Assembly: GCA_016860985.1 (NCBI GenBank) | Contig: BOKM01000001.1 | Span: forward strand, 399,462-463,461 | Origin: Patescibacteria group bacterium | Lineage (GTDB): Bacteria > Patescibacteriota > Dojkabacteria > GCA-002793355 | Length of the DNA: 64,000 nt | Direction of reading: 5' to 3' | Shown here: positions 11,594-53,165 of the stretch, piece after piece | How the letters are laid out: every line of letters begins with the position of its first letter | How positions within the stretch are numbered: the first letter of the stretch is position 1 | Translations under genes and position numbers: made by a program | The notes under the pieces: generated by a model | Databases searched by the model: none | Seen by the model: the letters and a program-made list of their open reading frames with translations, nothing else | What the model was told of the DNA's origin: nothing

Positions 11594-14500
11594 TTATTGC
11601 CCTGCTTGACACAGTGCATGGGTAGAAGTTCCACAAATAAGGTCGACTGTTTTCTCGGTTCCTAATAATGGCCGTAACGTATCAAGCAGCGATGCATCGT
11701 AAACAATCCATTCAGAGGGATACCTGCGATTATCAACTGGCGCGAGATTTCTCTTAAACAAAGGAACTGTATCGGAAGCATATACCCATCCGTGAATTTC
11801 TAGTCGGTCTGTACTTTTAGTCGTTGCGCCTCTTTCTCCTTTTGTGACACGGAGTTGTGCGCTTGAAGTAGCAATAATTGCTGCATCAAAACGGTCAACA
11901 ATAGGTGATCCTTTTCCATCTCCGGCAGGGGGGCGGGGTAAATCGCTTGGAACATCTTCAATTGTTAAAGAAGCGCCGTTAGCAAGTACAAAGACACAAC
12001 CATTACCTGCTCCAGCGGTTTTCTTTACTTGTCCTCGCATGATCAGATTACCCGTCACAAATATCACATTCGCTTTTGAACATGAAATATCGGATACCAC
12101 CGTTCCACCTGATGAGTACAGAATGTTCAGGTCTGCTTGCCCAATACTCGATAAACTCCCTGTTGTTTGGCACGTGCCAGAGCTTTCAGTGTTCATGCGT
12201 TCACAGTTTAGAATAGCAGTTGAGCGGAGCCGGTCATATTCATTGCCAGGTAAGAATGGTACATGTCCAAACAAGTCATATTCAGTTACACCATAGCGAT
12301 AATAATTATCGAATCCTAGCTGCATATTTTGCCCACCAACAAGATGTCCACCCGTCAATCCTGTTCCTTGAGCAGGTGACCCTGCAGTCATAAAATAACC
12401 GGTCAGTAGTGTAAAAGATTGTCTGGTAAAAGGTGCGTACACATTTCGAGTGTTGTCGTTTGTGGTGCCATCGTCCGTCGGGAGTGATTGAGCAAAAGGA
12501 ACAGCTCCACCCTTTGCACTGTAGACATCCCCATACGAGGTTTTTAACCACGGACCAAGAAATACATAAACCTCTTTATTTCTCCCACATCCCATGTTTC
12601 CAGCTCCATCGTAGACACACAATCCCGTTACGATTGAGTTGCCTGCACCGATTTCTTCACCAATTATTGTTATGGAATTCCCCGTTATGCTTTTCCTATC
12701 ATTTTTTCCATCATAAGGGATACCACCAATCTCTTTGAGTGCCCAAGCTCTATCACCAAGTGCTTCATCATCTAACTCCTCTTGCCGAATCATAAATCGA
12801 TTTGTCACTCCTTTGATGCCAGAACCACCTACGTTATCATTCATCGAAAAAGTAGCAGCAGCACCAGTTAATCCTTGCACCGCCCAAGAAACGTAGTTTA
12901 CTGTCGGAGGTATCGGATCATACAGCAACGTAACTTCACCTCCTGCTGGGCACATTGCGCCAAGACATAAATTGCGGGATTTATCAAACTTTAGCCATCC
13001 TTCATCACCTTTGCCAATTGCGTTCCCAAGTGGAGCGCTTACTTTATCAAGGGCACTCACAAATATTGAATATTCGCCCTCTGGCATCCCTTGCCCACCG
13101 TCTTTATCATTAAAATATACTCCAAAACGGAATGTTAAAGCTGTTGGATCTGATACAGAAGGAACTATCCCTTCTCTTTTAACACATGCCGCACACTGAG
13201 CAGGGCAAGTAGAAACAGGTACAGATACTGGGAGTACCGTGGGAACAGCGCTTTGTGATGAGTAGCAGATTAAGTGATTTGCATCCGCTGCAATTGCCCA
13301 ATCGTAGTTTTCAAGAAGTTGTGCGTTTGTTCCCGCGGTTATGGAAGCAACAGATGGCAAGTTGGAATTTGTGCAGCCAGAAGGGGTCTGTTGGCAGTCG
13401 GGAAAACCTTTCTCTTGCCAATCACGCTGACTTGCCCATTGCATCTTACCTTCTTTAATGTTGCCATTACTTCCAACTGTTTGTCCTAATTCATTAATAA
13501 GCGCAAGTGCAGAGAATTGCTGTTTAGCACTCCCCAATAAAGACGGATTAACACAAGTGCTACCTAAACAAGCAGTCGAAATTAAATTCCACGCGGCGCG
13601 CAGATTCACAATATGAGAGTTTTCTTTTTCAGAATACATTGCTTGAATACTATTTCTCATACCTGATTGCACCAAAGGCAATGCCACTACATCCCGGTTT
13701 AACGCTGTTCGCTGAAGCCAGATCCCTGCTTGCATGATATCATCGCTGCCATTTGCATCTCTAACTGTATACTCAACCAAGAGGGGGTTTCTCCGCTGAC
13801 TCATGCTCGTTTCGAATTTTTCTGCACCAATGGGGCATATTATTGGATCATCAATTGTTAATGACTCGCTACAGTAAGAAGCCCTTGCTTTAGTTTGACT
13901 CGAATAGGTTGTTCCCATAATTATTTGTGAACGACCATCAAGAAGATTTCCATTTCCTGTGGCACCCTTATCTTGCACCGCAGTCATTGAGTCAGCATCT
14001 GAAATAACAATAGAGGAAAGTTGAGGAGCTTGATTCTCTACTTGAATTGCAACCCTACAAGTCACTGGAGTAGAAGCGACATCAGGACCTGGCCCATCAG
14101 AATCTTGGTCAGCTATATCTATCTCAAGAAAACCACTACAAAGAGAACGTCCACTAATATTTTCAAAAAGCCCATGAGATTCTCGGGCGTCTACAAGAAA
14201 TTGTGTTGCTTGAGTAATCGCGGCAGGGTTGTCACTTCCATTCCGAACTGTTGCACCTATGAGCGATCCACCTCCAGCACTCTTAATAGTTGCACAAGAG
14301 TTCAAATTGCCAGAAGAGTTCTCAACTCTGACTGCCAACACATTGACCGTATCACCATAATCGTTATCTGAAACGGAGAGCGTAAATGACTTTGGCTGAT
14401 CTTCCCTAGTGAGTGAAATCGACGCAGTATTTATCGAACAAGAAGGTGTAGCATTTCTGTAAAGTGGATCACAATTGTAAGAAGAAGGTACGCAGTTATT

Positions 14501-15226
14501 ACACGACACACCCGTACCCTGGGGAACGGCTCGTGTTCTGAATTTTGTAGAAGACTCACCAGCAGGACAAGCAACAGGCGTACAATTACACGACTCCTCA
14601 AAGGTATACCACATCATATAGTCATTAAAATCGTAGTCACCGCCCCATTCGTCCCAATCGCCCCAACACTGCAAGGGACCAAGAGGATTACCATTGTCAC
14701 CGTTTTGAACCATGCTTCTAAAACTCGTACTGTCTGCAAAACCATAGTTCCCGTCTGGTTTTCCTCGACTTGGAGGGCATGGGCACCCTGTTCCGCAAGT
14801 ATTTGCATACGATCCTGTATTCTCAGTTTTCCATCCAACATTTGGATAGGTACAACTTCCATAACAATCGTATGTTCTTACAGTAATTCGATCAGAAGCA
14901 ACAACGTCCAAGGTCGCTGCTACTCCGGTAGTTGGATATGCATTTTGTATAACACTTCCATTCTTAGAAATTTCTAGCCGTTGCCCTCCACCCATCGTTG
15001 TCCAAATTCGGAGCTTTCCTTGGGTTGGAAACGAATTTATTGTGTGGCTGTTGCCCATGCTCCACAGGGCAGAATTGCATGACACGTTGGGGCCATTTGG
15101 GCAGGCGAATACAGGGTTTGTTGAAGCTATATAAACCGGCACAATAAGCAATACTATATAGGCAAGAATACTCCTTAATTTATTAAAGAGTTTATTTTCC
15201 ATAGAGATATACCCATAAAATACCAT
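11594..15226 (-). CDS. Very large (1210 aa) Cys-rich secreted protein of unknown function
   Basis: N-terminal signal or anchor. A long, uninterrupted ORF with many Cys plus Gly/Asn/Ser-rich segments. No recognisable catalytic motif. Confidence 0.6.
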   Translation of the reverse strand: MVFYGYISMENKLFNKLRSILAYIVLLIVPVYIASTNPVFACPNGPNVSCNSALWSMGNSHTINSFPTQGKLRIWTTMGGGQRLEISKNGSVIQNAYPTTGVAATLDVVASDRITVRTYDCYGSCTYPNVGWKTENTGSYANTCGTGCPCPPSRGKPDGNYGFADSTSFRSMVQNGDNGNPLGPLQCWGDWDEWGGDYDFNDYMMWYTFEESCNCTPVACPAGESSTKFRTRAVPQGTGVSCNNCVPSSYNCDPLYRNATPSCSINTASISLTREDQPKSFTLSVSDNDYGDTVNVLAVRVENSSGNLNSCATIKSAGGGSLIGATVRNGSDNPAAITQATQFLVDARESHGLFENISGRSLCSGFLEIDIADQDSDGPGPDVASTPVTCRVAIQVENQAPQLSSIVISDADSMTAVQDKGATGNGNLLDGRSQIIMGTTYSSQTKARASYCSESLTIDDPIICPIGAEKFETSMSQRRNPLLVEYTVRDANGSDDIMQAGIWLQRTALNRDVVALPLVQSGMRNSIQAMYSEKENSHIVNLRAAWNLISTACLGSTCVNPSLLGSAKQQFSALALINELGQTVGSNGNIKEGKMQWASQRDWQEKGFPDCQQTPSGCTNSNLPSVASITAGTNAQLLENYDWAIAADANHLICYSSQSAVPTVLPVSVPVSTCPAQCAACVKREGIVPSVSDPTALTFRFGVYFNDKDGGQGMPEGEYSIFVSALDKVSAPLGNAIGKGDEGWLKFDKSRNLCLGAMCPAGGEVTLLYDPIPPTVNYVSWAVQGLTGAAATFSMNDNVGGSGIKGVTNRFMIRQEELDDEALGDRAWALKEIGGIPYDGKNDRKSITGNSITIIGEEIGAGNSIVTGLCVYDGAGNMGCGRNKEVYVFLGPWLKTSYGDVYSAKGGAVPFAQSLPTDDGTTNDNTRNVYAPFTRQSFTLLTGYFMTAGSPAQGTGLTGGHLVGGQNMQLGFDNYYRYGVTEYDLFGHVPFLPGNEYDRLRSTAILNCERMNTESSGTCQTTGSLSSIGQADLNILYSSGGTVVSDISCSKANVIFVTGNLIMRGQVKKTAGAGNGCVFVLANGASLTIEDVPSDLPRPPAGDGKGSPIVDRFDAAIIATSSAQLRVTKGERGATTKSTDRLEIHGWVYASDTVPLFKRNLAPVDNRRYPSEWIVYDASLLDTLRPLLGTEKTVDLICGTSTHALCQAGQ

Positions 15227-37775: not shown

Positions 37776-39251
37776 CTACTGATTACTTGTAACTTGAGCT
37801 CCAGAGCGAAAAACATTGTCTAAATCGAGCAGATAATACCACCAATCATTTGCTTTTCCGTCGCTTCCTACACCTTTATATTTCGGAAAGTGTTTCATCC
37901 ACCAGCCAAAATACCCATATTCGGTGCAACCCCATTCTGTACATGTAACATTTTTCTTCACTTTGCCATATTTCGACAAATCTGGATAATCGTAAAAAGT
38001 GTCGCAGGTTGTTGCAACAACATTTGTTGTGTTGCCGTAATCATAATCACTGACAGCATTGGGAGGGTAATGCCCCGATCCACATCCACTATAAGAAAAA
38101 TCAGGTGACTGTGCCTTCACTAGCCCAAACTTATCCCAGCTATGGCTAATCCTATTTTCCGCCCAACTGCCATAAACCGTTCCCATAGTTGCTTCGAATC
38201 TGTGACTAAAATTGTGAATACTTGTCCCTATGTCTCGCTCGTATGACATTGGCATCATTACCGTCGTTCGCGAGTATGTATTGTCAATAATTGGTGGAGA
38301 ATTAATTCCAAACGCATGAGGTCCGATTGCCTGACTTTCCCACATTGACATCCATGGTGCACCGTAAATCCACACTTCATCAATTGTTCCGTTGTTTACT
38401 TTGCCTGGGAGCCCATACGTAGACATTAGTTTTTTCATATTTGTTTCGCCATTAAGACATTTTTCGTGGGTTGGGTCGTTAAGACAAGCAAAAAATTCAC
38501 TTTGCGTGTAGGTAAAGTTTGCAGTACATTGTGTTGGACGAGAACAATTGCCAGCTGCAGAACATTTACTCCAATACTCGTTCGAGAAGCATCCATTAGT
38601 CCATTCTGTAAAGCTATTATGCGTATACTCTTCTACAATATTAAAAGTAACATGACCACTCGTTGTAGTCTTAAAAAAACTCGCAACCTGTGGGGCAAGC
38701 TGTGCTGGGTCGTTCCAACCCGTGCACTGATGAAGCTTCATTTGAGCGCCGCCTTGTGATGGACACGAGATAGTCGGATTAACATGAATTAGTAAAACCT
38801 TGCGAATAAAATGCTTAGAGTTTAATACATTAGTACTTGTTGCTGTTGGTGTTTGAGTAGTCGTAGCAGTTGGCGTTGTACTATTTGTCACAATCGGCGT
38901 TGCGCTATTTGTTGGTGTTGGTGTACTAACAGAAGGCAAAGGCACTGCGGATACTGTTACTTGCGGAGGTAATAATGTAACGACTGGTAAAGAATTGCCT
39001 ACCCACGAATCTACATGGATACTAGGAACAAATAGGTGACCAATGGGAGTTGCAGCTGGAGTAGGGTCTCCCTTTATCCCTTGCACCCAATCACGGATAA
39101 TCCGTGTCTTTTCGGGAGTAACCACAAACAAAGATAAAGTGATACCTACCAATAAGCCAGCACTAATACCAATTAACCACATTGCTGTAGATATCTTTTT
39201 TTCTGGAAGCAATGGCGGTGCAAATTCAACCATATTAATTGTGAACCACAA
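37776..39251 (-). CDS. Secreted Cys-rich protein of unknown function with N-terminal anchor and Thr/Pro linker
   Basis: TM/signal segment. A TPTPTNSATPIVTNSTTPTATTTQTPTATST linker. The C-terminal region has about 20 Cys and many Trp/Tyr. Confidence 0.5.
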   Translation of the reverse strand: MWFTINMVEFAPPLLPEKKISTAMWLIGISAGLLVGITLSLFVVTPEKTRIIRDWVQGIKGDPTPAATPIGHLFVPSIHVDSWVGNSLPVVTLLPPQVTVSAVPLPSVSTPTPTNSATPIVTNSTTPTATTTQTPTATSTNVLNSKHFIRKVLLIHVNPTISCPSQGGAQMKLHQCTGWNDPAQLAPQVASFFKTTTSGHVTFNIVEEYTHNSFTEWTNGCFSNEYWSKCSAAGNCSRPTQCTANFTYTQSEFFACLNDPTHEKCLNGETNMKKLMSTYGLPGKVNNGTIDEVWIYGAPWMSMWESQAIGPHAFGINSPPIIDNTYSRTTVMMPMSYERDIGTSIHNFSHRFEATMGTVYGSWAENRISHSWDKFGLVKAQSPDFSYSGCGSGHYPPNAVSDYDYGNTTNVVATTCDTFYDYPDLSKYGKVKKNVTCTEWGCTEYGYFGWWMKHFPKYKGVGSDGKANDWWYYLLDLDNVFRSGAQVTSNQ

Positions 39252-40302
39252 TTAAGTCACCTACCTTGCTCCATTCAAACACTTTTTTAGCATCACTGAC
39301 CGTTAACCTTAGACATCCGGTACTTCTTGGCTTACCTATGTTTGTTTCTGGTTCAAAGATCTTCTTATCTCCAGTTTTTTGAAAACCTGGATACCAATAT
39401 ACTAAAGCATGTATACCGAGCATCGCTTTTTGTCGCGAATCATATGTAAAAGCCTGCCAGTAAGGCATCCATTTGTCGGCGGTTGAAGACCACGCGAGTG
39501 GCGATTTGTTAAGAATCTCATAAACACCAACAGGATTGTATTCCGGGAATGCACCTGAAATTCTGAATTTTTTGTAGCTTCCCTTTTCCCACATAAACAT
39601 CAATTGTCGAGAGCCATCAAACTCTAAATATTTTTGAGCAAACTGCCCATCTGTATTTGGCAAATCCTTACGCACAGGAACTTGTAACACCATTGGTTTA
39701 ATGGTCGTATACATTCCAGTTACTAATGAAAACTCACTATTACTGATATAGAGCTCTGCAACTTGTTGAGCCAAGCTCTCGTAGTCAACAACATTATCAT
39801 TGATTCTTGCCTGAACTGTTTTGTTCCCCTGCTTGTTTTTTAGTGTTTCTAGCGGTTGTGCAAAACGAATATTCTTTTCAAGTAGCTGCTGCAAACAGGG
39901 AATATCGATAGCAAGTTGGTAGCTTTTGCAAGAACCAATTTGAGGAACCTGCTGGGTGTATTGGCCGCACGAGAGTATTTCAGCCGCGCTCACAACGAGC
40001 TCTTCCGTGCCAAAATACAGGGCTACTTCTGGTCGAACATGCTTTAGGGACTTAGTGTAGTCGCTCGTACTTATACAACTTTCACTGCTCGTAGATTCGC
40101 CAAGTACAGCAGTTATGTTTTCTTGCTCCTTTAAAGCTAATTCGCTCACCCGCTGCGACATTGTATCTTCTACAACGACAGGAGATGGTTCTTGGTTCGA
40201 TGCGAAAATAAGTGGGTACTTAAGAACTCCAATGCCCCCAAATATTCCAAAGATACCAAAACAAAGAAGCCCCAAGAAGAATTTGTCGGAATTACTACTC
40301 AT
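39235..40302 (-). CDS. L,D-transpeptidase (YkuD-domain) protein
   Basis: C-terminal catalytic motif HALVY..G...KPRSTGCLRL...D...V..W...GDLIVV with the conserved His and Cys. Confidence 0.7.
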   Translation of the reverse strand: MSSNSDKFFLGLLCFGIFGIFGGIGVLKYPLIFASNQEPSPVVVEDTMSQRVSELALKEQENITAVLGESTSSESCISTSDYTKSLKHVRPEVALYFGTEELVVSAAEILSCGQYTQQVPQIGSCKSYQLAIDIPCLQQLLEKNIRFAQPLETLKNKQGNKTVQARINDNVVDYESLAQQVAELYISNSEFSLVTGMYTTIKPMVLQVPVRKDLPNTDGQFAQKYLEFDGSRQLMFMWEKGSYKKFRISGAFPEYNPVGVYEILNKSPLAWSSTADKWMPYWQAFTYDSRQKAMLGIHALVYWYPGFQKTGDKKIFEPETNIGKPRSTGCLRLTVSDAKKVFEWSKVGDLIVVHN

Positions 40303-41824
40303 CTTGTGAAGATTGATTCTTAAGTCGACTGATCAATTCGCTTAAGCGCTTTTCGCGCCTTAACATAATATCGTTGAGCTTATCCAAGGTTTCAATCCTT
40401 TCGTGAAGTTCTCGCTCAGCATTTTTTTGTGCCGTTACGTCTCGCACAATTTCGATAGCACCAACCTTGCGCCCGTAGTTATCGTAAAGGGGTTTTGCGA
40501 CACATAACACAACTTGGTTTTTTCCTTCTAAGTATACAGACAGCGTTTCTCCTTCTCTGTGAACATCTTGCCCTTTATAATACTTACTGGTTGTTAGGCC
40601 TTTAAGAACTAAATCTACGAGCATTGGTCGTTTCTTTCCATAAAATGGTACTGAATAGGCATAATCGCCCTTTCCGACCATTACTTCGGATTTAATTCCT
40701 GTCATTGTTTCCATCGCCTTATTCCAATTGATGACAATACCTTTTTCGTCTATTACAAAAACAGGGTCTGGAAGAAAGTTAATTATAGAAGAAAACAGAA
40801 ACTCTGATTTTTTTATTTTTTTTCTCTCGTTCTTTTGTTTGGTAATGTTGTGAAGGTAATAAATATATCCGACGGTACGTTTCTTTTCATCAAGCAATGA
40901 TGTTCTCATTACTTCTACCCACACATTTAGCTTCTTTATAAATACCTCAAAACCTTCGGCAGTATCGATAAACATTCCTCGACCCATAATTGTTGTACCT
41001 TTTTTCGAATCATCACCCATCATCTTTTTTGCAGCCTCGTTTGTCTCTATAACTTCCCCACGTGCATTTGTAATTACGATACCACTAGTAATACTATCCA
41101 ATACTTTTTCTCTTGCTGCGGGTAATAGCTCAAAATATTTATTACGGAAGAAACTATAACTAAGCACTAATCCTGTAGCTGCAAATGCAATAGGAGTTAA
41201 ATCGTACCCGTTCTCGAATGAAGGAATATAAATATATGCGATATTCGCAATCCAAGGGAAAATGATCGAGATTAACGTATTACGAACCAATCTCTTTGTT
41301 TCTGCTACTTGTTTGCTTGCATAGTACGCGAGCAAACCGACTCCAGATGCCAAACACAAATATTGGCCAATCATATGAACGAAAAAGAGCGGGCCATGTT
41401 CATAAACAACTGTTGCAAACCCTCCCTCTGAAACGGCTCTCGTACTCGTCCAGAGTAAATGATGATACTCATTCGTAAAAACGACCGTACACGCCAAAAC
41501 AACGAAGACTGTCAGCAAATATTTCACCCATCTAAAAGCATTTTTGTCGTACTGGGCAAATTCAATGGAAAACAATAGCCACATTGGACCAGCAAGTGTT
41601 ATTCCAAGGTAAGAGAGTTGGCTTAATAATACTTTATTTGCAGCTCCGTAGACGCTACCTTCAAGTGCCCCCATTAACGACCACCACGCTGCCGCAGCCA
41701 TAACGTAACCTAACAAGAGGGCCCCTTTGTAGTTTTTTCTGCGGATAAGAAAGAGTGATAACACAAGCAGGAAAATAAAATTCACAAAGAGAACTGTTGA
41801 GTAAGCAGTAATTTGGAGCAGCAT
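40295..41824 (-). CDS. Membrane sensor: N-terminal 7TM region followed by two PAS domains, with no kinase, GGDEF or other output domain
   Basis: About 7 hydrophobic helices over the first ~230 aa. PAS-like segments include ITSGIVITNARGEVIETNEAAKKMMG and PDPVFVIDEKGIVINWNKAMETMTG. The protein ends after a coiled-coil segment. Confidence 0.6.
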   Translation of the reverse strand: MLLQITAYSTVLFVNFIFLLVLSLFLIRRKNYKGALLLGYVMAAAAWWSLMGALEGSVYGAANKVLLSQLSYLGITLAGPMWLLFSIEFAQYDKNAFRWVKYLLTVFVVLACTVVFTNEYHHLLWTSTRAVSEGGFATVVYEHGPLFFVHMIGQYLCLASGVGLLAYYASKQVAETKRLVRNTLISIIFPWIANIAYIYIPSFENGYDLTPIAFAATGLVLSYSFFRNKYFELLPAAREKVLDSITSGIVITNARGEVIETNEAAKKMMGDDSKKGTTIMGRGMFIDTAEGFEVFIKKLNVWVEVMRTSLLDEKKRTVGYIYYLHNITKQKNERKKIKKSEFLFSSIINFLPDPVFVIDEKGIVINWNKAMETMTGIKSEVMVGKGDYAYSVPFYGKKRPMLVDLVLKGLTTSKYYKGQDVHREGETLSVYLEGKNQVVLCVAKPLYDNYGRKVGAIEIVRDVTAQKNAERELHERIETLDKLNDIMLRREKRLSELISRLKNQSSQDE

Positions 41825-41858
41825 AATGCACTATAATGAAAATTTCATTTTTTGTATA

Positions 41859-44800
41859 TTATTTATTCTCATCTAGAACAAGAGTCGTTGTAACTAATGT
41901 AAGGTTGTCGCGATTGTTCTTAGAGTCCACATATATCGCTTTTACTTTTTGTCCTGCCTCAATGATTGAATACCGGTTATCCATGACCTTAAGGTAGTAA
42001 GCACCACTCGCGACCGCGAAATTATAATTTCCTTCTTTATCAGTAAATGTTCTGTATAAAAGATTTTTAAACTCAGTATCAAATAACCCCAATTCTACCC
42101 CGCCAACTGCCTCACCCTTTTTTGTTCGTACAGTTCCAACTTTCTTGCTGTGTAAGAGAAGTAATAGTGCTTTTGCCCCAAGAATAACGAGATAAAGTGA
42201 TACAGCAAAATAATTGTATATGTGCGGGTAAACAAAACTTGCATACAGACTGTACACGAGCCCTACTAACAATAATCCTGTGCTCCCATATGCTGCAATG
42301 CGATCAATAACGGATACTATTTTCACCCTTTGTGCCTGTGCCTCACTAATGACAATTGGATCCATAGGAACTGAAAGCATAACAGTATCAGCAGCATTTT
42401 TCACTGCAAAAGACTTTCCAAGATACACATTTGCATAACCTCCATCAACAAGTTGATTAACCAAGGAAGAAGGAAACGAATACAATGGGTGGTCAACCGT
42501 TAGAATATATTCTCCTGCATGTGCAGACAATCTCATGACTCCGTTCGCATCTGTAACCACCGTATCTACGATTTTTCCGCCATTTTGAGTTTTCAAACGT
42601 ACAACTGCTCGAGCAATAGGCTTTTTCGTCACCGAATCATAAACAACCCCGTAGCTTCTTCTTCTTTTTCTATCTAGAAAACCGGCGAGCGCCAAGAATA
42701 TATTCCCTTGCACTGTATTTTGCATCGCGATGGCACCACCTTTTGCAGCCAGCGCATAGACTGAGGCAAACTGTATAACAGCCGCTTCTACCACCAGTGC
42801 ACCGGCGCCAATTGCTGTGGCATTGCTCCACGGAACAGTTTTTACTACAGCAATCTCTCGTTGTATTTTTGAATTACAATTTCCATTATCTGCCATAAGA
42901 TTTATTGTCATCGATGTTGGAGGAGTTATTACCTTTTCTCCCTGTGGAGGAAGGTGCGCATCATACCCACTCCACACTACTCTAGTCGCATTTGTCGCTT
43001 TCCAAGAGAAGGTTAGCGTTTCACCTTCTTCAATGACGGTACTTGATACTTTTAGGTAGTCAAACGTTGGACAACTCTGAGTTTCGATTTCATTTTGCTT
43101 TGGAGGTAAATCATTATCCCCTGTCACTGGTGGCAAGGTAGGAATCATTATGGAAGAGGAAGGCAAAACTGTAGTTATACCAGTAGTGCTACCTGTAACT
43201 GTTGTAGTCACAGAAGTTGTCACCGAGGATGTAACTGTTATCGTGGTTGTTACTGTTCCGGTTGGGGTTGTTGTTCCAGATGTTGTAGCAGTTGTGGTCG
43301 GTGTGGCAGTAGAAGACGAGGTTGGAGTACTTGTTGGCGTATCAGATGGTGAATCGGTGGGAGTATCAGTAGGAGTATCGGTTGGTGTTGGTGTTGCAGT
43401 TGGAGTACTCGTAGGAGCGACGTACTGAAAACTTGGATAGCCATCGTTGTAGCTTCCAGTAATTACCCAAAGACTCGAGAAATTCCACCCAGAAAAGGTT
43501 CCTTCTGTCTTCATTGCGGATGTGCTTTCCCCACTACCTCCCGCGCTATTTGATTCTCCGCTTGTATCTGTATCCCAATAACTTGATGTGATACTTCCAG
43601 TCCCTTGACTATATCCGGCAAAACCTCCGATGTCCCATTCATAATCTGGTTCTGTGTTTACCGTAAGTCCGCCTGCTGCATAACTGTTAGTGATAGTCGA
43701 TGTGCGAAATTCTCCCACAAACCCACCAATTGCCCACGCATAGTTACCATCTTGAGGGTTTGGTGAATTAACAGTAACCGATGCCCGTGTGTAGGAGTTC
43801 GAAATTGTGCCACTTCGATGTTCTCCAACAAAACCTCCAACACCAGAAACGTCTTCAAGAGCGGTAACCGTAACATTTCCAGTTGCAAACGATTCCTGAA
43901 TAGAGGGATTGGCTTGTCCATACCTATTTCTTGTTAATCCTGTGAACCCACCAATGTCATTTCCCCACGGACCTGTATTCGAAACACTTCCTGTTGAATA
44001 ACTTCTTAATACGGTTGCTCCGTCATATACTGTTCCAGCAAAACCACCAACATCATAGTTGTCTTCTCCATCGGCCGTAACATTTCCAGTTGAATAGCAA
44101 TCTTCTACTCTAGTTGTTCCGAGATACGTACCATATCCTCCCAGACCACCAACAAACCCCGCATTGTCGTAGTTATCACCATAGCCACTCGCTGCTCCAA
44201 CTCCCACATGCACATCACCAGTAGCATAGCTTCTGTAGACTTCAGAACTGCCGACTTGCCAACCAACAAATCCTCCGGTGAAATACGTATCGACCCCACT
44301 ACTAATATCCCCGGTTGCATAAGAATCTTCAATTACCGCAGTACCGCGAGTCATCCCCACAAAACCGCCTGTTCCTCCATAAACTCCATCGAGGAGACTA
44401 ATTTCTACATTTGCATGACTGGTCGTGATGTAGGCATCACCTTCTGCTATACCTACCAAACCACCGACAGTTTCAGTGTCGTAGTCCATTATGACTTGCG
44501 TAATAGTACCTGTTGCACTGCTATGGTGAAGTTCTCCTCCGTTCATCGTGCCAACGAGGGTACTTATCGTCCCCATAGAGCTTACCGATTTAACCACTTG
44601 GACGTTTGTAAGATTTACACCGGTAATTGTCGCCCCATTTGTATTTGCAAAAAGCCCAGTCGATGTCGCATTAACCACCAACGAGAGATTTTGTATTTCG
44701 TAACTGTCACCATCGTATCTACCTTCAAATCCCCCTCCCGACAATCCAATTGGCGTAAACGATACGGCAGTACAATCAATATCATTCATTTGAAGATAAT

Positions 44801-45038
44801 AGGCAGTAAGATCCGAATCAACTTCTTGCAATTGTGCGCAGGTTGTTACTTGATACGGATCACCAATCGTTCCTGTACCTGAACCAGAAAAAGCTGATGC
44901 CTGCTTACCTTTTACTAATGCGAGAATAGTTACAAAAACGAGCACTGATGCAACAGACAATATCAATGACCAGGATTGAAGTATCCATACAAAAAATGAA
45001 TGAGTGCTACGGCGCTGCATTGTTTGCGAGATTAACAA
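41859..45038 (-). CDS. Giant surface protein: N-terminal anchor, about nine GLUG-motif repeats, Thr/Pro/Ser linker and the conserved C-terminal membrane module
   Basis: Recurring GGLVG/GGFVG...Y.TG.V units (VGGLVGIAEGD, TGGFVGMTRG, IGGFVGEFRTS and others) match the GLUG motif. The C-terminal RRRSYGVVYDSVTKKPIARAVVRLK..DTVVTDANGVMRL and GVELGLFDTEFKNLLYRTFTDKEGNYNF are homologous to the tails of 5629..9291 and 45007..48837. Confidence 0.75.
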   Translation of the reverse strand: MLISQTMQRRSTHSFFVWILQSWSLILSVASVLVFVTILALVKGKQASAFSGSGTGTIGDPYQVTTCAQLQEVDSDLTAYYLQMNDIDCTAVSFTPIGLSGGGFEGRYDGDSYEIQNLSLVVNATSTGLFANTNGATITGVNLTNVQVVKSVSSMGTISTLVGTMNGGELHHSSATGTITQVIMDYDTETVGGLVGIAEGDAYITTSHANVEISLLDGVYGGTGGFVGMTRGTAVIEDSYATGDISSGVDTYFTGGFVGWQVGSSEVYRSYATGDVHVGVGAASGYGDNYDNAGFVGGLGGYGTYLGTTRVEDCYSTGNVTADGEDNYDVGGFAGTVYDGATVLRSYSTGSVSNTGPWGNDIGGFTGLTRNRYGQANPSIQESFATGNVTVTALEDVSGVGGFVGEHRSGTISNSYTRASVTVNSPNPQDGNYAWAIGGFVGEFRTSTITNSYAAGGLTVNTEPDYEWDIGGFAGYSQGTGSITSSYWDTDTSGESNSAGGSGESTSAMKTEGTFSGWNFSSLWVITGSYNDGYPSFQYVAPTSTPTATPTPTDTPTDTPTDSPSDTPTSTPTSSSTATPTTTATTSGTTTPTGTVTTTITVTSSVTTSVTTTVTGSTTGITTVLPSSSIMIPTLPPVTGDNDLPPKQNEIETQSCPTFDYLKVSSTVIEEGETLTFSWKATNATRVVWSGYDAHLPPQGEKVITPPTSMTINLMADNGNCNSKIQREIAVVKTVPWSNATAIGAGALVVEAAVIQFASVYALAAKGGAIAMQNTVQGNIFLALAGFLDRKRRRSYGVVYDSVTKKPIARAVVRLKTQNGGKIVDTVVTDANGVMRLSAHAGEYILTVDHPLYSFPSSLVNQLVDGGYANVYLGKSFAVKNAADTVMLSVPMDPIVISEAQAQRVKIVSVIDRIAAYGSTGLLLVGLVYSLYASFVYPHIYNYFAVSLYLVILGAKALLLLLHSKKVGTVRTKKGEAVGGVELGLFDTEFKNLLYRTFTDKEGNYNFAVASGAYYLKVMDNRYSIIEAGQKVKAIYVDSKNNRDNLTLVTTTLVLDENK
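43195..43430. repeat. Thr/Pro/Ser-rich repeat tract (coding) in the GLUG protein linker
   Basis: Encodes TPTATPTPTDTPTDTPTDSPSDTPTSTPTSSSTATPTTTATTSGTTTPTGT. The DNA shows short, imperfect tandem units. Confidence 0.5.
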
Positions 45039-48000
45039 CTAAATCATGTGCAATCAAACGAACTTCTGACGATGACTTCCTTTTCACTGCAGGAATTTCA
45101 ATGCCTTGCGTATTATTGCCAGAATATACTTTATACGTGTTATCCATAAGACGAAGAACGTATGCTTTATTGGGCACCGCAAAGTTATATTCACCTTTTT
45201 CGTTGGTAAACGTTCTATAAAGAAGTGTATTAAACTCTTTATCAAATATTCCAACTTCGACTCCTGCAAGAGGCTTTCCCGTCACTGTACTTACCCTACC
45301 AAAGGTTCGCGGCGACCATAAAGTAAGAAGGAGTTTTCCAATACATACTGAGCCATATAATACAGATGCAAAAATATTTATTGGTAAAGGAAAAAGTGTT
45401 GCGACATACAAACTGTAACCAAATCCCGCAAAGAGCGTAATGGTACTTGCAGTGCTTAAAGCTTCAAAACCAGCATCAAAAATCAATCGTGTTCTTCTTT
45501 TTGCTTGTGTTTCTTTTTCAGGGTCTAAAGGTATAGAGACCGTTACTTGTTGATCGGCAGCTCCTTGTGTAAGAACTCCCCCAAAATAAAGATGCGTATA
45601 TCCACCGTCAGTATCACCCTTTACATAAGTAGAAGGAAATTGATAACCAGCGCGAACAACCCGTATAAGATACCTTCCGGGTTGAGTTTTTAATTGGAAA
45701 ACACCCTGAGCATCTGACACGACTGTATCAACAACAGCTTCAGTGTCAACATTTAATAATCGAATAACAACTCGACCGAGCGGATTCTTCGTTTTCGAGT
45801 CATACACTATGCCCCAAGCTTGGCGTTTCTTTCTTCTATTGAAAATCGATAAAGCGACTCCCCACAAATTTGTTGACATTACCGCTCCCGAAGAGCCAAT
45901 AGTCGCCGTACCAAGTGAGACTGCTTGTTGCAAAAGAATTTCTGCTACCAAGGCACTTGCACCGACAGCAGTTGCAGTTTGCAATTGTTGTTGAGCAGGA
46001 TTCTCAAAGTTCACTACTTCAGAAGCAATACAAGCACCGTTATCTGCTATAAGCTTTGCTTTTCGATCTGCAGGGACAATAAATGGTGTAGAGCCAGACA
46101 CAGCTACAAGAGAACCATTTATTGTAACTTTTGTGGTATTTTTTGTTATCCAAGAGAGTTCAACCCGCTCGCCTTCTGCTGCAATAGTAGGCGAACTAGC
46201 AAAAGTTAAAATAACAGGACAAATGGGACTTTGTTGGGCTTCTCTTCTTGAGGATATTGTATTTTCTGGTGTGGCAGTGACACTTGAGGTAACAGGAGGA
46301 GTTGATGTGACAGTTCCGGTTCCTGTTAAAGTTGGTGTTACTGTTGCAGTTACACTCGTTGGTGTAGGTGTAACTGTAGCTGTGCTCGATGGTGTTGGTG
46401 TAGGAGTTGGTTGGACCGCAGTTGTAAATTGAACGACCTCCCCATACGCGGTGCCGAGTGAATTCGTTGCGTATGCTCTTACATAATATAGTGTATTCGA
46501 TTGCAACTCGGAAAGCAGCGTATACATTTCTCCAGTAGTGCCGGTTGTTGATTGCACAGTGTCACTAAGTGTTGGGGAAGATTCAGTTGTAGAATAGACG
46601 ACACCACGTTCGATAATAGCAAGGTATCCATCTGACTCGACATTTCCTCCAACCATAGCAGAGTTGTGAGTGAGCAGTGAAATTGAGCCTGTGGTTACTG
46701 TGGGTAATTCCCCACAGGGCACAAAGGAGGAGTCTCGTTTTACAATTATCGACGATTGACCTGCTCCTGTTTGCATTGCGAGTGCAAGATAATTCGCACC
46801 GTTACAAGCCGGGTCATGGTATAAATCAATATCATCTGCATGAAGACCTGTTTCAGTAAACTCACTCAGCACATTATTCCATGAACTCCCGTTAAATTCT
46901 TTGACGGAAAAAGTTGTATCTCCAGTAGGTACTGCGTACCACATGGCGTCTTCAGTTTGATTATATTCAAGACTAGCAGGAAAAGTGCTTGAATCATAAA
47001 CAGAAGGGAAATCGAAATCCGCACCCATTTGTGTTTTTGCAGAGCCACCTGGCGAGCTGTATACCTTAAACGTGTTTGTTACAACATTTTCGGTTGCGAA
47101 GATCCAAGAGGAGTTGCCTTGATCATAATCAAAATCTTGAACAGAAGTCGGAGAAGTAAACAAAGCAGACACAGGATTATTCCAAAGAGTTCCTGTAAAC
47201 TCACTCACGCTTCCATTTGAACATGCGTACCACGTAAAATTATTAACTGGATCTCCTATCAGTAAATTGGGATTAAGTATGGTTAATCCGTTTGTTGTAG
47301 TACAGGGAATTTCTTGAATCGTTACCCATCCACCGAGATCTGGGTTAAAGTTGTATCCATATACAAGATCATCTCCTACACCACTCGGGTCGGGAAAGAC
47401 GTATAAATATGGCAATTGAGCAATTGGTTGACAAAACATCCCAAGTCCGTACGCTGCATTATTTGAGCTTGCACCAGCGACACCTAACACGCCCCAAACT
47501 CCATTCTCATAACGGTATAATGTTGCTTTATCACTTTCAGAGGCGTCTGCAATAAGTGCAACCATACGCCCATCTTCGCAAGTGTCAAAACTGAACCTTC
47601 CTTGACCACTTGACGTTAAAGGGTTGGAAAACCTACTGTTTCCAACTAACTCCCAGTTCCCTGTGTTTTTATTGTATCTGCGCACAGTTACCTTATAATT
47701 ACTTTCACTTTGACTATACTCTGGGTAAGCAACTATTGGATCCTGATTTTGCTTGTCGGTACGTACGAAAACACTGCCCGTATACCCTCCAGGATTAATC
47801 GGAGATCCGACATTTTCCCACTCTGCAACGGGAAGAGTGGGGGTCGGCACGGGGGGTATATCAAATTGCATTTTGTATATTGAGCCCGGATCACACGTGG
47901 AACCGTTGTAAAGACATCCATTCGATGCATACATCAAATCGTTGTTAACATCTAGTGCAATATTGTAAGGGCCATTATATGTCCCTGAATCAGGAGAGGG

Positions 48001-48837
48001 CATCCAAGCATATTCCCACAAGAAAGAACCTGCGTTTGAGATTTTCACTACATTTCGAGAACCGTCCATCAGGTAAATATTGCCCTCTAAATCTACCTGA
48101 CTATCTAAAATCATACTTGCTTCTGCTATATCATTTTCATATTGCAATACGCCGGATGAGTTATACTTCCTCACCCTATTCAAATGATCACCACCAGACA
48201 CAAAAATATTATTGTCTTGATCTACAATAACAGTGGCAGAATTGGCAAGCATTGGGTCTGATTCAAACATAAACTCTGAAATAAAGCTTCCCTCCACGCT
48301 CCATTTTTGGAGATAGTCTTGCGTTGTAGCAACAACAATATTTCCAGCAGAATCACGAGACACGTCAGAAATTGGTCGAGCATTGGGGGTTACTCCATAC
48401 TCAATAATTTTTTCTACAAAAGTTCCGTCTAAGTTGAACTTGAGAACATAGTAATGATTTACGAGAAGCACATAATCACTTCCGATATCGATACTTATAA
48501 AATAAGGAGCTGTTGCTAAATCTTCGTATGGAGGAGCATTGAATGTGTTAATATGGGTGCCGCTTGGAGAATAAATCTCAATAACACTGGAATCCGACTG
48601 CCCGGTATAAACCGTTCCATCTGGAGCAACATCGAGGAATGCTATCTGATCTCCCCACTGAGAATCATCTACACCAGTTGTTGGCCACGGGTTGCCAGGT
48701 CGCCACTCCAGTACAAGCGATAGAGAGTCGTAGACTGCTTGACTTGTAGGACTCTTTACAAAAGCAAACAGCATGAACACAACCAACGTTGAGAGAATAG
48801 CAATAACTGCTTGAATCTTCCTGAGCATTACGAACAT
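45007..48837 (-). CDS. Giant surface protein: signal peptide, beta-propeller-like repeats, Fn3-like domain, Thr/Pro linker and the conserved C-terminal membrane module
   Basis: Repeated hhKh..xGxFhxxF blade-like units (SVIEIYSPSGTHINTF, YVLKFNLDGTFVEKI, RVRKYNSSGVLQYE). An Fn3-like ending YYVRAYATNSLGTAYGEVVQFTT. The C-terminal QAWGIVYDSKTKNPLGRVVIRLL..DTVVSDAQGVFQL and GVEVGIFDKEFNTLLYRTFTNEKGEYNF are homologous to the other two giants. Overlaps the downstream paralog by 32 nt. Confidence 0.75.
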   Translation of the reverse strand: MFVMLRKIQAVIAILSTLVVFMLFAFVKSPTSQAVYDSLSLVLEWRPGNPWPTTGVDDSQWGDQIAFLDVAPDGTVYTGQSDSSVIEIYSPSGTHINTFNAPPYEDLATAPYFISIDIGSDYVLLVNHYYVLKFNLDGTFVEKIIEYGVTPNARPISDVSRDSAGNIVVATTQDYLQKWSVEGSFISEFMFESDPMLANSATVIVDQDNNIFVSGGDHLNRVRKYNSSGVLQYENDIAEASMILDSQVDLEGNIYLMDGSRNVVKISNAGSFLWEYAWMPSPDSGTYNGPYNIALDVNNDLMYASNGCLYNGSTCDPGSIYKMQFDIPPVPTPTLPVAEWENVGSPINPGGYTGSVFVRTDKQNQDPIVAYPEYSQSESNYKVTVRRYNKNTGNWELVGNSRFSNPLTSSGQGRFSFDTCEDGRMVALIADASESDKATLYRYENGVWGVLGVAGASSNNAAYGLGMFCQPIAQLPYLYVFPDPSGVGDDLVYGYNFNPDLGGWVTIQEIPCTTTNGLTILNPNLLIGDPVNNFTWYACSNGSVSEFTGTLWNNPVSALFTSPTSVQDFDYDQGNSSWIFATENVVTNTFKVYSSPGGSAKTQMGADFDFPSVYDSSTFPASLEYNQTEDAMWYAVPTGDTTFSVKEFNGSSWNNVLSEFTETGLHADDIDLYHDPACNGANYLALAMQTGAGQSSIIVKRDSSFVPCGELPTVTTGSISLLTHNSAMVGGNVESDGYLAIIERGVVYSTTESSPTLSDTVQSTTGTTGEMYTLLSELQSNTLYYVRAYATNSLGTAYGEVVQFTTAVQPTPTPTPSSTATVTPTPTSVTATVTPTLTGTGTVTSTPPVTSSVTATPENTISSRREAQQSPICPVILTFASSPTIAAEGERVELSWITKNTTKVTINGSLVAVSGSTPFIVPADRKAKLIADNGACIASEVVNFENPAQQQLQTATAVGASALVAEILLQQAVSLGTATIGSSGAVMSTNLWGVALSIFNRRKKRQAWGIVYDSKTKNPLGRVVIRLLNVDTEAVVDTVVSDAQGVFQLKTQPGRYLIRVVRAGYQFPSTYVKGDTDGGYTHLYFGGVLTQGAADQQVTVSIPLDPEKETQAKRRTRLIFDAGFEALSTASTITLFAGFGYSLYVATLFPLPINIFASVLYGSVCIGKLLLTLWSPRTFGRVSTVTGKPLAGVEVGIFDKEFNTLLYRTFTNEKGEYNFAVPNKAYVLRLMDNTYKVYSGNNTQGIEIPAVKRKSSSEVRLIAHDLVVNLANNAAP

Positions 48838-51719: not shown

Positions 51720-52001
51720 TTAAAATGTTGGCGTTGGTGTTACGGAAGGAGTTACCTGAACAGAATCTGGATCTACCCCATCCTCAAACTGTTTTGGTGT
51801 TAACGCAAGATATTTCTCAGCTCTATCAGTAAATGCAGTTAAAGATTCTACATCAAGTGCTTCAGGCAATAGATTAATTGAATCGGCTGTTATTCCTGGA
51901 CCTTCCTTTTCTCCGCCAAAAAAGACAAAGAATACCTCGCCAACAGCAGCAACTGCAGCTAATACGAGCGCAATAACTATAAAACCTTTTGCGTTATTCA
52001 T
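51720..52001 (-). CDS. Small membrane protein of unknown function
   Basis: 93 aa with a single N-terminal TM. Overlaps the PilO-like gene by 8 nt. Confidence 0.3.
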   Translation of the reverse strand: MNNAKGFIVIALVLAAVAAVGEVFFVFFGGEKEGPGITADSINLLPEALDVESLTAFTDRAEKYLALTPKQFEDGVDPDSVQVTPSVTPTPTF

Positions 52002-52614
52002 TTGGTGCTGCTGCGCTACTCATTTTATACAACAATAGTGTAAGAGACATACCTGTTTTGGCAGGTTCTGTTTTGTTCGGTGTATAGCTAATACTTAACA
52101 CTTTAGGAAGAAACGGCGTACTCTCAATATAAGTCAAAAAGTCTGCGAGTTGAGTCGTATCACCTGTTACAGCGACCATAAAGGTTTGTGGCGTCATCTC
52201 CGCAAATTGCAAATCTGCAATCTTTTCAACTTGCCTAAAATAACTGGCAGAAAAACTAACGGAATCTAATGACAACTTGTAGCGCTTCGCTATTTGATTC
52301 AAGTTTGTAATAAACAGCGAATAATCACCATCGTTAGGGAAGTAATAATCTAGTGCTTGAAGTTTTTCTTTTTGCTCAAGCCTGTCTTTAAGTAATGACG
52401 TAAGATTTGTGTTTTGTTGAACAAGCTTTTCGACGGTTGCCTGTTTTTCTGTGTATTTTCTATTTGTTTGGATGATTGTAATCATAGTTGGTCTAAAAGA
52501 ACCCCACAACAAAGCTACCACAAGTGCAAACGTCAACAAACCCGTCGAAATTGCCTTTTGCTGACTTGTTTGTAATACTCCGGTGATATTCCTTGAACCT
52601 GCGAGCTGTGCCAT
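51994..52614 (-). CDS. PilO-like type IV pilus assembly protein (tentative)
   Basis: Single TM after a short N-terminus, then a coiled-coil and an alpha/beta domain. Position and size match PilO downstream of PilN. Confidence 0.35.
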   Translation of the reverse strand: MAQLAGSRNITGVLQTSQQKAISTGLLTFALVVALLWGSFRPTMITIIQTNRKYTEKQATVEKLVQQNTNLTSLLKDRLEQKEKLQALDYYFPNDGDYSLFITNLNQIAKRYKLSLDSVSFSASYFRQVEKIADLQFAEMTPQTFMVAVTGDTTQLADFLTYIESTPFLPKVLSISYTPNKTEPAKTGMSLTLLLYKMSSAAAPNE

Positions 52615-52616
52615 AA

Positions 52617-53165
52617 CTAGTTTTCTGTCAGCTTAAGTTTAAAAGTCACCGAAAAATTGATAACCCCACCGGCAGCTTGATTTGCAGACATCGACACATT
52701 GGTGAGGGAACCTGTTGCTTCTTTAAAGTTATTTTCTAACTGTAAAAGAGTATCGTAGGCTGCAACCTGACCCGATATCGAACAACCGCTGATATCGATA
52801 CTTATTGACTGTACCACTACACTGGGGGGAATAAGTGCTTGCACCTGTTCGTAAAAAGATGCGAGCGAGTACTTGCTGCTATCCATTTTTTGAATACTTT
52901 CCATACTCTGAAGGAGCTGCCTAACTTGAGATTCTTCTGTTGAGCGAGCATCCAGTAATTGTTTTTGCAACTCGATTTGTCGATCCATCGCTGCGATTCG
53001 CCCATCAATTACAAATCGAAATGCAATTGCACCAAGAACAACAATTTCTGTAACAATAATGATATATTTTGCCGTATTTGCCGTCCAAGCATATATACGA
53101 TCCCACTGACCTTGCGGGCGGATTTCTGCTATTAACAAATTGATTGAAGACTTTTGGGCAGGCAT
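52617..53165 (-). CDS. PilN-like type IV pilus assembly protein (tentative)
   Basis: N-terminal INLL motif (SINLLIAEIRPQ) followed by a TM and coiled-coil, as in PilN. Confidence 0.4.
   Translation of the reverse strand: MPAQKSSINLLIAEIRPQGQWDRIYAWTANTAKYIIIVTEIVVLGAIAFRFVIDGRIAAMDRQIELQKQLLDARSTEESQVRQLLQSMESIQKMDSSKYSLASFYEQVQALIPPSVVVQSISIDISGCSISGQVAAYDTLLQLENNFKEATGSLTNVSMSANQAAGGVINFSVTFKLKLTEN

Follow-up and report, generated by a model that had tools for sequence, protein, structure and literature searches.

Probable surface proteins of a Patescibacteria genome carry different heads on one conserved C-terminal module predicted to lie in the membrane

In a 64,000-nt stretch of a Patescibacteria genome, here called the window (contig BOKM01000001.1 of assembly GCA_016860985.1, forward-strand positions 399,462-463,461; feature coordinates are window positions), three minus-strand genes, A, B and C, encode large paralogs that carry differing heads on one conserved C-terminal tail. 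It seems rather likely that all three are modular surface-display proteins, in which a variable head on a Thr/Pro stalk is held by a conserved polytopic C-terminal membrane anchor with two cytoplasmic domains. They are probably adhesins, a binding role that we infer from domain type, since the heads of the wider family are made of typical extracellular binding domains (NHL, GLUG, Fn3, Calx-beta, FG-GAP, PD40 and P-domain). The tail, or module, is regarded here as a new anchor architecture for membrane-anchored modular surface proteins, built from beta-sandwiches of the known CarboxypepD_reg/transthyretin-like fold class.

Different heads on one tail

A first-pass annotation of this DNA had described two adjacent minus-strand genes, of 1059 and 1276 aa, with a common C-terminal tail. 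Both open reading frames (ORFs) lie where it placed them, and residues 584-1056 of A align with residues 831-1269 of B at 33% identity (BLASTP with composition-based statistics, E=2e-65). Its count of two paralogs was one short, since C had been overlooked; in a tblastn search of the window with the tails, that of C is 40% identical to the tail of A (E=9e-84) and 36% identical to that of B. The alignment of A with B starts within the T-rich linker, as it might if the similarity were trivial, a matter of low-complexity Thr/Pro sequence or of generic hydrophobic and beta-sandwich composition. However, it extends ~410 residues beyond the linker and is therefore not low-complexity, which rules out a possibility that the annotation itself had raised. 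With more than 400 non-repetitive aligned residues at 33-40% identity, E values of 2e-65 to 9e-84 under composition-based statistics, and motifs whose order is kept in thousands of proteins, a trivial origin is scarcely credible.

The three proteins share a common plan. A has a long N-terminal hydrophobic anchor, a head of GLUG repeats, a Thr/Pro linker and the shared tail; B has a signal peptide, a divergent propeller-like head, an Fn3-like domain, the linker and the tail; and C has a signal peptide, an NHL-repeat propeller head, the linker and the tail. Database protein P0152, encoded on a 1.05-Mb NCBI contig, is 100% identical to B over the compared segments (aa 36-810 and 869-1276), although a look-up of the exact B sequence gave no match. 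The N-terminal halves of A and B had been called unrelated, with GLUG repeats in A, and this is borne out: the head of A matches GLUG (Pfam PF07581) at 76.4 bits against a cut-off of 20.5, and it shows no significant similarity to the head of B. The head of C matches NHL (PF01436) at 113.4 bits against a cut-off of 20. The ‘propeller plus Fn3-like’ description of B is less secure. No Pfam domain matches its head, and the one indication of a propeller is a weak similarity to the NHL propeller of C (23-24% identity over ~279 aa, E 8e-6 to 4e-9), whilst the Fn3-like region gives weak matches to Fn3 domains (E 0.08-0.6) and an NCBIfam match to the N-terminal region of BT0360 (5e-10).

The anatomy of the tail was taken from an AlphaFold model of that of A, built from a 54-sequence alignment (mean pLDDT, the predicted local distance difference test, 86); an earlier model from 3 sequences (pLDDT 59) was too weak and was not used. 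The order is an immunoglobulin (Ig)-like domain, a helix H1 followed by a second helix H1b and a basic cluster, a sandwich (dom1), a hairpin of two transmembrane (TM) helices, TM2 and TM3, and a second sandwich (dom2). The Ig-like domain is modelled at pLDDT >90, and its Cys pair is kept in all three paralogs (residues 840 and 905 in C; Table 1 gives those of A and B). In A, H1 is a helix of ~22 residues with a conserved mid-helix Glu and H1b is a 12-residue helix; the cluster that closes H1b reads RKRRR in A and RRKKR in B, and RKKRQK is also seen. TM2 and TM3 are long helices linked by a 5-residue P-x-x-x-N loop. Both sandwiches show the seven-strand prealbumin-like fold and, unlike the Ig-like domain, have no conserved Cys pair. 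dom1 has an extra extension of ~45 residues beside the family-specific motifs WGxVYDSxTKxP, YxFPS and IPxDP. It is homologous to dom2 (hhalign probability 99.2%, E=8e-20), so that the module appears to be an internal duplication of a unit of helix, basic cluster and sandwich, plus one extra helix. Pfam recognises dom1 as PF13620 in B and in C (38.7 bits, cut-off 32.3); the tail of A has no Pfam match at E<=0.1, yet it aligns with B and C along its length. No entry in the PDB matches more than one domain of the module, either by profile search or with Foldseek (TMq, the TM-score normalised to query length, <=0.19). Profile matches of the TM hairpin to mitochondrial pyruvate carrier 2 in the PDB (E ~0.003) were dismissed as reflecting hydrophobic composition. 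The tail had first been described in much the same way, and the Ig-like domain, basic cluster, hairpin and two sandwiches of that description stand; the TM helix it placed before the basic cluster is only weakly hydrophobic in B and C.

The tail had also been said to be no described anchor, and this agrees with what was found. An LPXTG-like motif ([LI]Px[TSA][GAN]) is absent throughout A, B and C, as are PEP and PGF motifs, and NCBIfam gives no PEP-CTERM or PGF-CTERM match for A or B. Searches of Pfam and NCBIfam for the C-terminal domain of the type IX secretion system (Por_Secre_tail, TIGR04183) gave no match at E<=0.1 for A and B or at E<=0.01 for C. The NHL head of C scores 243 bits against the ScyF NHL/PEP-CTERM model, under the cut-off of 350, and the best stretch (aa 125-285) lies within the head. 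Moreover, H1 and its RKKR-type cluster are not at the extreme C-terminus, since ~270 residues follow. Scanned with A, B and C, Pfam and NCBIfam hold no model covering the module beyond the single sandwich domain; source databases name members ‘hypothetical protein’ or, generically, ‘carboxypeptidase-like regulatory domain-containing protein’; and no paper was found on the module, or linking this domain type to the candidate phyla radiation (CPR).

The module belongs to a large family. A word-indexed protein search with the tail of B alone gave one match, and a profile search was needed to reveal the family. HMMER, run exhaustively over 1.84 billion cluster representatives, gave 8,371 matches at E<=1e-3, of which 4,077 reach E<=1e-10 and 1,697 reach E<=1e-30. 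Among the top 150 matches, 96 hold the whole module in one match, 0-76 residues from the C-terminus, ~44 have it interrupted by an insertion before dom2, and ~10 are unrelated giants of repeated sandwiches. Host proteins are between 275 and 4,586 aa long; at the short end they consist of a bare module behind a single N-terminal hydrophobic segment, with no head. About a third of full-length matches include the Ig-like domain, and an N-terminal hydrophobic signal or anchor is present in 80 of 104 long members. The conserved motifs are the basic cluster followed by WG(V/I)VYDSxTKxP, then YxFPS, DGxYxNxYxG, IP(L/M)DP, the P...N loop and, in dom2, TDxxGxYxF. Among 37 members scanned for head domains, NHL occurs in 11, GLUG in 5 and Fn3 in 5, beside DUF5122, Calx-beta, P-domain, PD40, FG-GAP and other propellers. 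The early idea of a module onto which different heads have been swapped is thus upheld by the many head types, the C-terminal position of the module in 96 of the top 150 matches and the headless forms. Several copies with differing heads can occur together, three in the window, two in the syntenic contig L084 and at least five, three of these in tandem, in Ca. Dojkabacteria cMAG.19, the complete genome (1.09 Mb) that lies closest.

A genome scan with one genome per species gave 343 confirmed loci, nearly all from the CPR, of which 80 were kept for work on context. Almost all of the 80 are from CPR/Patescibacteria, among them Dojkabacteria, Microgenomates, Saccharibacteria, Uhr-, Nomura-, Magasanik-, Buchanan- and Falkowbacteria, and Paceibacterota. 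Many records (L012, L014, L016, L058 and others) are metagenome-assembled genomes, assembled as third-party (TPA) entries and titled ‘uncultured Gammaproteobacteria’, that carry the module together with neighbours of the Pam pilus type considered below; they include a complete chromosome of ~1.0 Mb (OZ246408.1). Given this chromosome size and the CPR-type neighbours, the labels are probably wrong.

Some unusual members and neighbours may be recorded here. P0040 and P0096 (~1,900 aa) open with a receiver domain of the response-regulator kind, which is followed by a strong signal-anchor helix, an ectodomain of ~1,400 aa and the C-terminal module. P0176 (572 aa) has a prepilin-type N-terminal methylation motif before the module (Pfam N_methyl, 28.5 bits). 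In two Dojkabacteria loci, proteins of ~210 aa with dockerin-like DxNxDGxVNSLD repeats adjoin module genes (L005:4657-5289, minus strand; L007:6227-6862, plus strand).

Membrane topology of the module

In the topology proposed for the module, the head, the stalk and the Ig-like domain lie outside, H1 passes inwards through the membrane, and dom1 and dom2 are in the cytoplasm with the TM2-TM3 hairpin between them; as a prediction, this arrangement is well supported. It was tested statistically by counts of Lys and Arg in 129 family members, following the positive-inside rule. The three flanks on the side of the sandwiches hold 1,359 of these residues, against 36 at the TM2-TM3 loop, which has a median length of 4 residues. 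The charge bias across H1 has the same direction in 111 of 117 members, with 1.13 Lys and Arg per 15 aa before the helix and 4.29 on the side of the basic cluster (Wilcoxon p=2e-20). Counted from where H1 starts, the basic cluster lies at a median distance of 33 aa; such a span is too short for two passes and fits one crossing followed by a short interfacial helix. H1 is credible as a TM helix in most members, the peak Kyte-Doolittle (KD) hydropathy having a median of 1.85 and reaching at least 1.6 in 102 of 129. An acidic residue in the middle of H1 co-occurs with a Lys in the middle of TM3 (Fisher p=1.5e-6, odds ratio 7.6), which hints at a buried ion pair.

Independent support for cytoplasmic sandwiches comes from two proteins of a different architecture, P0206 and P0207, which are 42% identical to each other. 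These have six TM segments with a charge pattern that puts both termini inside, a K-rich linker and a PAS_9 domain scoring above threshold. A dom1-type domain with the diagnostic motifs begins 3 residues after PAS_9, in the position usual for an output domain, and the protein stops at IPxDP (genomic context L082:10001-11245). The dom1-type domain therefore shares its compartment with a classical cytoplasmic PAS domain. The N-terminal fusions to receiver domains are compatible with the proposed topology but not decisive, since one upstream hydrophobic segment is ambiguous, and the C-terminal extensions of members are disordered and uninformative on this point. The cytoplasmic placement of the transthyretin-like domains, which had been noted at the outset as unusual, is thus supported as a prediction, both by the family-wide positive-inside bias and by the PAS-dom1 fusions.

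With this topology, the N-terminal signal peptide or anchor would route the head, the stalk and the disulfide-bonded Ig-like domain through Sec until H1 halts transfer, and the RKKR-type cluster would keep the chain on the cytoplasmic face. dom1 would fold in the cytoplasm, TM2 and TM3 would insert as a tight hairpin with an outer loop of 4-5 residues, and dom2, homologous to dom1, would likewise fold in the cytoplasm. The outcome would be a three-helix bundle, probably with an intramembrane pair between the Glu of H1 and the Lys of TM3, capped on the inside by two domains. A capped bundle would be expected to resist extraction far better than a single helix, and an extraction-resistant anchor would suit organisms that have no outer membrane, show no sortase signal in these proteins and cling to host cells or particles. 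The strong conservation of WG(V/I)VYDSxTKxP in dom1 suggests that the inner domains may also bind something, for example the lipid face or a protein partner.

Several points weigh against this arrangement of anchor and inner domains. The evidence for the topology consists of the positive-inside rule and a fusion from a different architecture. CarboxypepD_reg and transthyretin-like domains are extracytoplasmic in nearly all characterised proteins, and the structural neighbours found for the sandwiches are all extracellular or luminal proteins. H1 and H1b are modelled at a pLDDT of only ~50, and in B and C the stretch ahead of the basic cluster is of low hydropathy (KD peaks of 1.52 and 1.46, against 2.5-2.75 in the N-terminal anchors). 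The association of Glu with Lys may reflect clade membership instead of genuine covariation, and the resistance to extraction is our inference alone.

The location of the characterised domains of this fold, known both generally and from the structural neighbours, together with the weak and poorly modelled H1 of B and C, would sit more easily with the opposite topology, in which H1 is not a membrane helix and the head, Ig-like domain, dom1 and dom2 are all outside, with a tiny cytoplasmic TM2-TM3 loop. The sandwiches would then bind the wall or polysaccharide, and the basic clusters anionic wall polymers; the conservation of an L,D-transpeptidase as operon partner within this lineage (see below) and the Pro-rich C-terminal tails of some members, which look like wall-spanning regions, would be in keeping with this. 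However, such an arrangement would leave ~12-15 Lys and Arg per protein outside and 0-1 inside in all 129 members. The charge asymmetry over H1, the hydropathy of H1 in most members, its co-occurring Glu with Lys in TM3, which argues for an H1 embedded in the membrane, and the position of the PAS-dom1 fusion after six TM segments all speak against it, as does the absence from the sandwiches of a conserved Cys pair like that of the Ig-like domain. The opposite topology is accordingly judged quite improbable.

Gene neighbourhood in the window

Coordinates are collected in Table 1. Two starts are available for A, an ATG at 45020 that gives a 14-nt overlap with B and a TTG at 45038 that gives 32 nt, the stop codon of B (45007-45009) falling within A. 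The A-like and B-like orthologs in L084 overlap by exactly 14 nt. A therefore probably starts at the ATG, and the 32-nt overlap first reported is more likely to be one of 14 nt. On its downstream side A is separated by 34 nt from a gene for a 7TM-PAS protein, which overlaps the L,D-transpeptidase gene by 8 nt; the latter overlaps the gene for a 491-aa protein by 17 nt. This spacing suggests a five-gene unit of ~11 kb, from 48837 to 37776, instead of the ~9.6 kb proposed initially, with the 491-aa gene included. A scan of the unit for promoters and terminators gave no convincing signal, and nothing above shuffled expectation that would delimit it. The 7TM-PAS protein matches only the HisKA_7TM and PAS models of Pfam, with no HisKA, HATPase_c or other output domain.

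Table 1. Features of the window discussed in the text
Feature	Position	Strand	Remarks
Gene A	41859..45038	-	1059 aa counted from TTG at 45038
A head, GLUG repeats (aa 50-545)	43404..44891	-	Pfam Glug E=8.9e-22, 4 stretches
A Thr/Pro-rich linker (aa 546-650)	43089..43403	-	read from sequence
A Ig-like (PKD-like) domain	42840..43073	-	Cys pair C656/C721; predicted extracellular
A H1 + H1b + basic cluster (aa 740-794)	42657..42821	-	low model confidence
A dom1, transthyretin/CarboxypepD_reg-like sandwich + extension	42354..42656	-	motifs YGVVYDSVTKKP, YSFPS, VPMDP
A TM2-TM3 hairpin (aa 899-962)	42153..42344	-	loop PHIYN, 5 aa; conserved mid-TM3 Lys
A dom2, second transthyretin-like sandwich	41862..42152	-	motif LLYRTFTDKEGNYNF; homologous to dom1
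Gene B	45007..48837	-	1276 aa
B head, propeller-like region (aa 36-699)	46741..48732	-	23-24% identity to NHL propeller of C
B Fn3-like domain (aa 700-816)	46390..46740	-	weakly supported
B Thr/Pro-rich linker (aa 817-867)	46237..46389	-	read from sequence
B Ig-like domain	45988..46221	-	Cys pair C873/C936
B H1 + H1b + RRKKR (aa 955-1005)	45823..45975	-	peak hydropathy 1.52
B dom1, CarboxypepD_reg	45502..45822	-	Pfam 45.3 bits, cut-off 32.3
B TM2-TM3 hairpin (aa 1113-1174)	45316..45501	-	loop PLPIN
B dom2, second transthyretin-like sandwich	45010..45315	-	
Gene C, third paralog	5629..9291	-	1220 aa
C tail	5632..6774	-	homologous to tails of A and B
7TM (HisKA_7TM) + PAS protein	40295..41824	-	between A and transpeptidase
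L,D-transpeptidase (YkuD)	39235..40302	-	59% identity to L084 counterpart
491-aa protein	37776..39251	-	TM segment, T/P linker, Cys-rich domain; 77% identity in L084

The gene order in L084 is sigma-70 ... AI-2E, NUDIX, the B-like P0003, the A-like P0004, YkuD and a 486-aa protein, and the tails of A and B are 54-69% identical to those of their orthologs there. This contig has neither the 7TM-PAS gene nor a TspO gene. As the order B, A, YkuD and 486-aa protein is kept without the PAS gene, the conserved unit is taken to be B, A, L,D-transpeptidase and 491-aa protein, and the PAS gene to be a lineage-specific insertion. Thus, of the single transcription unit first suggested for A, B, a PAS sensor and an L,D-transpeptidase, the transpeptidase partnership is retained in the relative and the PAS gene is not. 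Further afield, none of the window neighbours (PAS, L,D-transpeptidase, 491-aa protein, TspO and others) recurs in the 80 family loci, although a positive control worked; the conserved partnership is confined to the immediate lineage.

Other features of the neighbourhood deserve mention. The 491-aa protein, the last of the conserved unit, has no family match but is better conserved with respect to L084 than A or B. The 34-nt gap between the stop of A and the start of the PAS gene (41825..41858) holds an AT-only palindrome, AATGAAAtTTTCATT, which might be an operator, or might have been left behind when the PAS gene was inserted. Upstream of C lie ORFs of 323 aa (9354..10325, minus strand) and 1210 aa (11594..15226, minus strand), the latter Cys-rich and secreted-looking, neither with a Pfam or NCBIfam match, and between them is a DUF2202 gene (10795..11556). 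Two small genes at 51994..53165 (minus strand), encoding proteins of 206 and 182 aa with one TM segment each, are kept in L084; one has a weak GspM-like match, and the pair may be pilus alignment proteins of the PilO/PilN type.

Possible roles and relation to known systems

In the wider family the module is linked to genes of the Pam pilus, a CPR system described in a 2026 preprint, in whose model both the chaperones (PamC/D) and the terminator (PamR) are anchored by TM segments (Troman et al., bioRxiv 10.64898/2026.03.03.709456); NCBIfam represents it by the models CPR_Pam_pilin_C and PamT. One or more Pam-type pilin genes precede the module gene in 34 of the 80 loci, each of Parcubacteria type (34 loci within L011-L079, for example L043:3719-9224 and L019:3761-9158); the pilins match NCBIfam CPR_Pam_pilin_C at 149-161 bits, against a cut-off of 55. 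Between pilin and module gene lies a gene for a secreted beta-rich protein of ~320 aa that closes with a TM helix and a K-rich stretch and is weakly similar to the Enterococcus WxL-interacting protein (E=0.004). The set is co-oriented, the beta-rich gene mostly abuts or overlaps the module gene, which is the last of the set, and in 19 loci a giant gene lies downstream of the module gene. The place of the module gene at the end of Pam-type operons would agree with a module that fastens extracellular structures to the membrane. In the window, a pilin profile search and an NCBIfam search of ORFs found no Pam pilin and no homolog of the beta-rich protein (c1), and Pam genes are likewise absent from the closest loci (L002-L010). 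The Pam link thus pertains to the family, and not directly to A, B and C.

The Pam-locus members have features of their own. Disordered Pro/Glu/Lys-rich tails of 100-170 aa follow dom2, and the C-termini read ...(E/K)SIFG in L043, L019, L066 and L047 and ...QFG or ...KFG in L074 and L075; such ends may be a short docking motif. The heads of the module proteins at L043:5448-9224, L019:5460-9158 and L066:3809-7405 hold Cys-rich acidic repeats (~aa 100-246) and give weak matches to the N- and C-terminal splicing regions of inteins or Hint domains, so that autoprocessing of these heads could occur.

Two other roles have to be set against that of display anchor. The module might serve a receptor in which the head senses a host or ligand and the cytoplasmic sandwiches relay signals to or from signalling proteins, anchoring being secondary. 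The receiver domain ahead of the signal-anchor helix in P0040 and P0096, the dom1-type domain in the output position after PAS in P0206 and P0207, the gene for a 7TM-PAS protein with no output domain directly after A, and a conservation of WGxVYDSxTKxP that far exceeds the need of the fold alone are all in favour of such a role. However, these fusions are rare (receiver domains in 2 of the top 150 matches, PAS in 2 of 62 matches), the family has no enzymatic output domain, and the PAS protein of the window resembles P0207 at the level of the PAS domain only (E=7e-4). As the PAS gene is also missing from the syntenic relative, and the window neighbours do not recur beside module genes in the 80 other loci, a receptor with anchoring as a side function appears unlikely, if not negligible.

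It is less likely still, indeed very improbable, that A, B, C and their kin are the membrane-embedded end subunits of donor-strand-exchange pili of the Pam type. The idea draws on the co-oriented and mostly abutting genes for pilin, TM-anchored beta-rich protein and module in 34 of 80 loci, and on the model in the preprint, in which the membrane-anchored PamR ends and tethers the pilus (10.64898/2026.03.03.709456). Against it are the lack of any Pam pilin or c1 homolog in the window by profile search, and of Pam genes in L002-L010, and the large globular heads of A, B and C (GLUG, propellers), which are not pilin-like N-termini. The components described in the text of the preprint have at most one C-terminal TM helix each, and a carboxypeptidase/transthyretin-like protein with three TM helices is not mentioned there (10.64898/2026.03.03.709456). 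An S-layer role was set aside by reasoning, several paralogs with unrelated heads per genome being ill-suited to a lattice former; so was a channel or transporter role, for three helices with no conserved polar pore pattern beyond the Glu/Lys pair.

Elements of these roles could be combined. The module might be a CPR-specific two-way membrane coupling device, its sandwiches docking output-less PAS sensors, receiver domains or structural partners, and in Pam-type loci it might form the tethering base of a donor-strand-exchange pilus. This is speculative, and its likelihood is rated low, much as for the receptor. If true, it would tie surface contact mechanically and informationally to the cytoplasm, as a bacterial counterpart of integrin-type receptors made from an otherwise extracellular fold.

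Amongst described systems, the sortase-anchored LPXTG adhesins of the type called microbial surface components recognising adhesive matrix molecules (MSCRAMMs), and pilins (SdrD, BcpA, SpaA), are similar to A, B and C in having a variable head, a stalk and a C-terminal hydrophobic helix with a basic cluster, and the sandwiches of the module are structurally near the CnaB, SdrD-B and prealbumin-like domains. The module differs in having no LPXTG motif and in the ~270 residues (sandwich, TM hairpin, sandwich) that follow its helix and basic cluster; its sandwiches are predicted to be cytoplasmic instead of part of an extracellular stalk, and its retention would be by permanent embedding in the membrane rather than by transpeptidation to the wall. 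The Pam pilus is, like the module, CPR-specific surface machinery with C-terminal TM segments in the cytoplasmic membrane of cells with no outer membrane; in the text of the preprint, however, PamA/B/E/T, PamC/D and PamR have one C-terminal TM helix or none, against the three TM helices and two sandwiches of the module (10.64898/2026.03.03.709456). Known PF13620 domains, as in carboxypeptidase D, NOMO and the extensions of TonB-dependent receptors, are extracellular, periplasmic or luminal, whereas the module interleaves two copies with three TM helices and is predicted to have them face the cytoplasm. Mycoplasma cytadhesins and eukaryotic integrins, whose cytoplasmic tails link to internal partners, also join a large binding domain outside the cell to a membrane span and a portion in the cytoplasm, in organisms that are poor in wall or attached to a host. 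This is a functional analogy only, with no relationship in sequence or structure, the cytoplasmic part of the module being two sandwiches split by a TM hairpin.

A considerable part of bacterial diversity falls within CPR/Patescibacteria, which apparently live fixed to other cells. The module bears on how these bacteria retain surface proteins without an outer membrane and, in the proteins described here, without sortase signals, and its motifs offer an easy way to pick out candidate surface proteins and adhesins from CPR genomes. Beside Pam pilus genes, the module protein is a possible missing membrane component in many lineages. In the module, a fold that is normally extracellular has apparently been put to use inside the cell.

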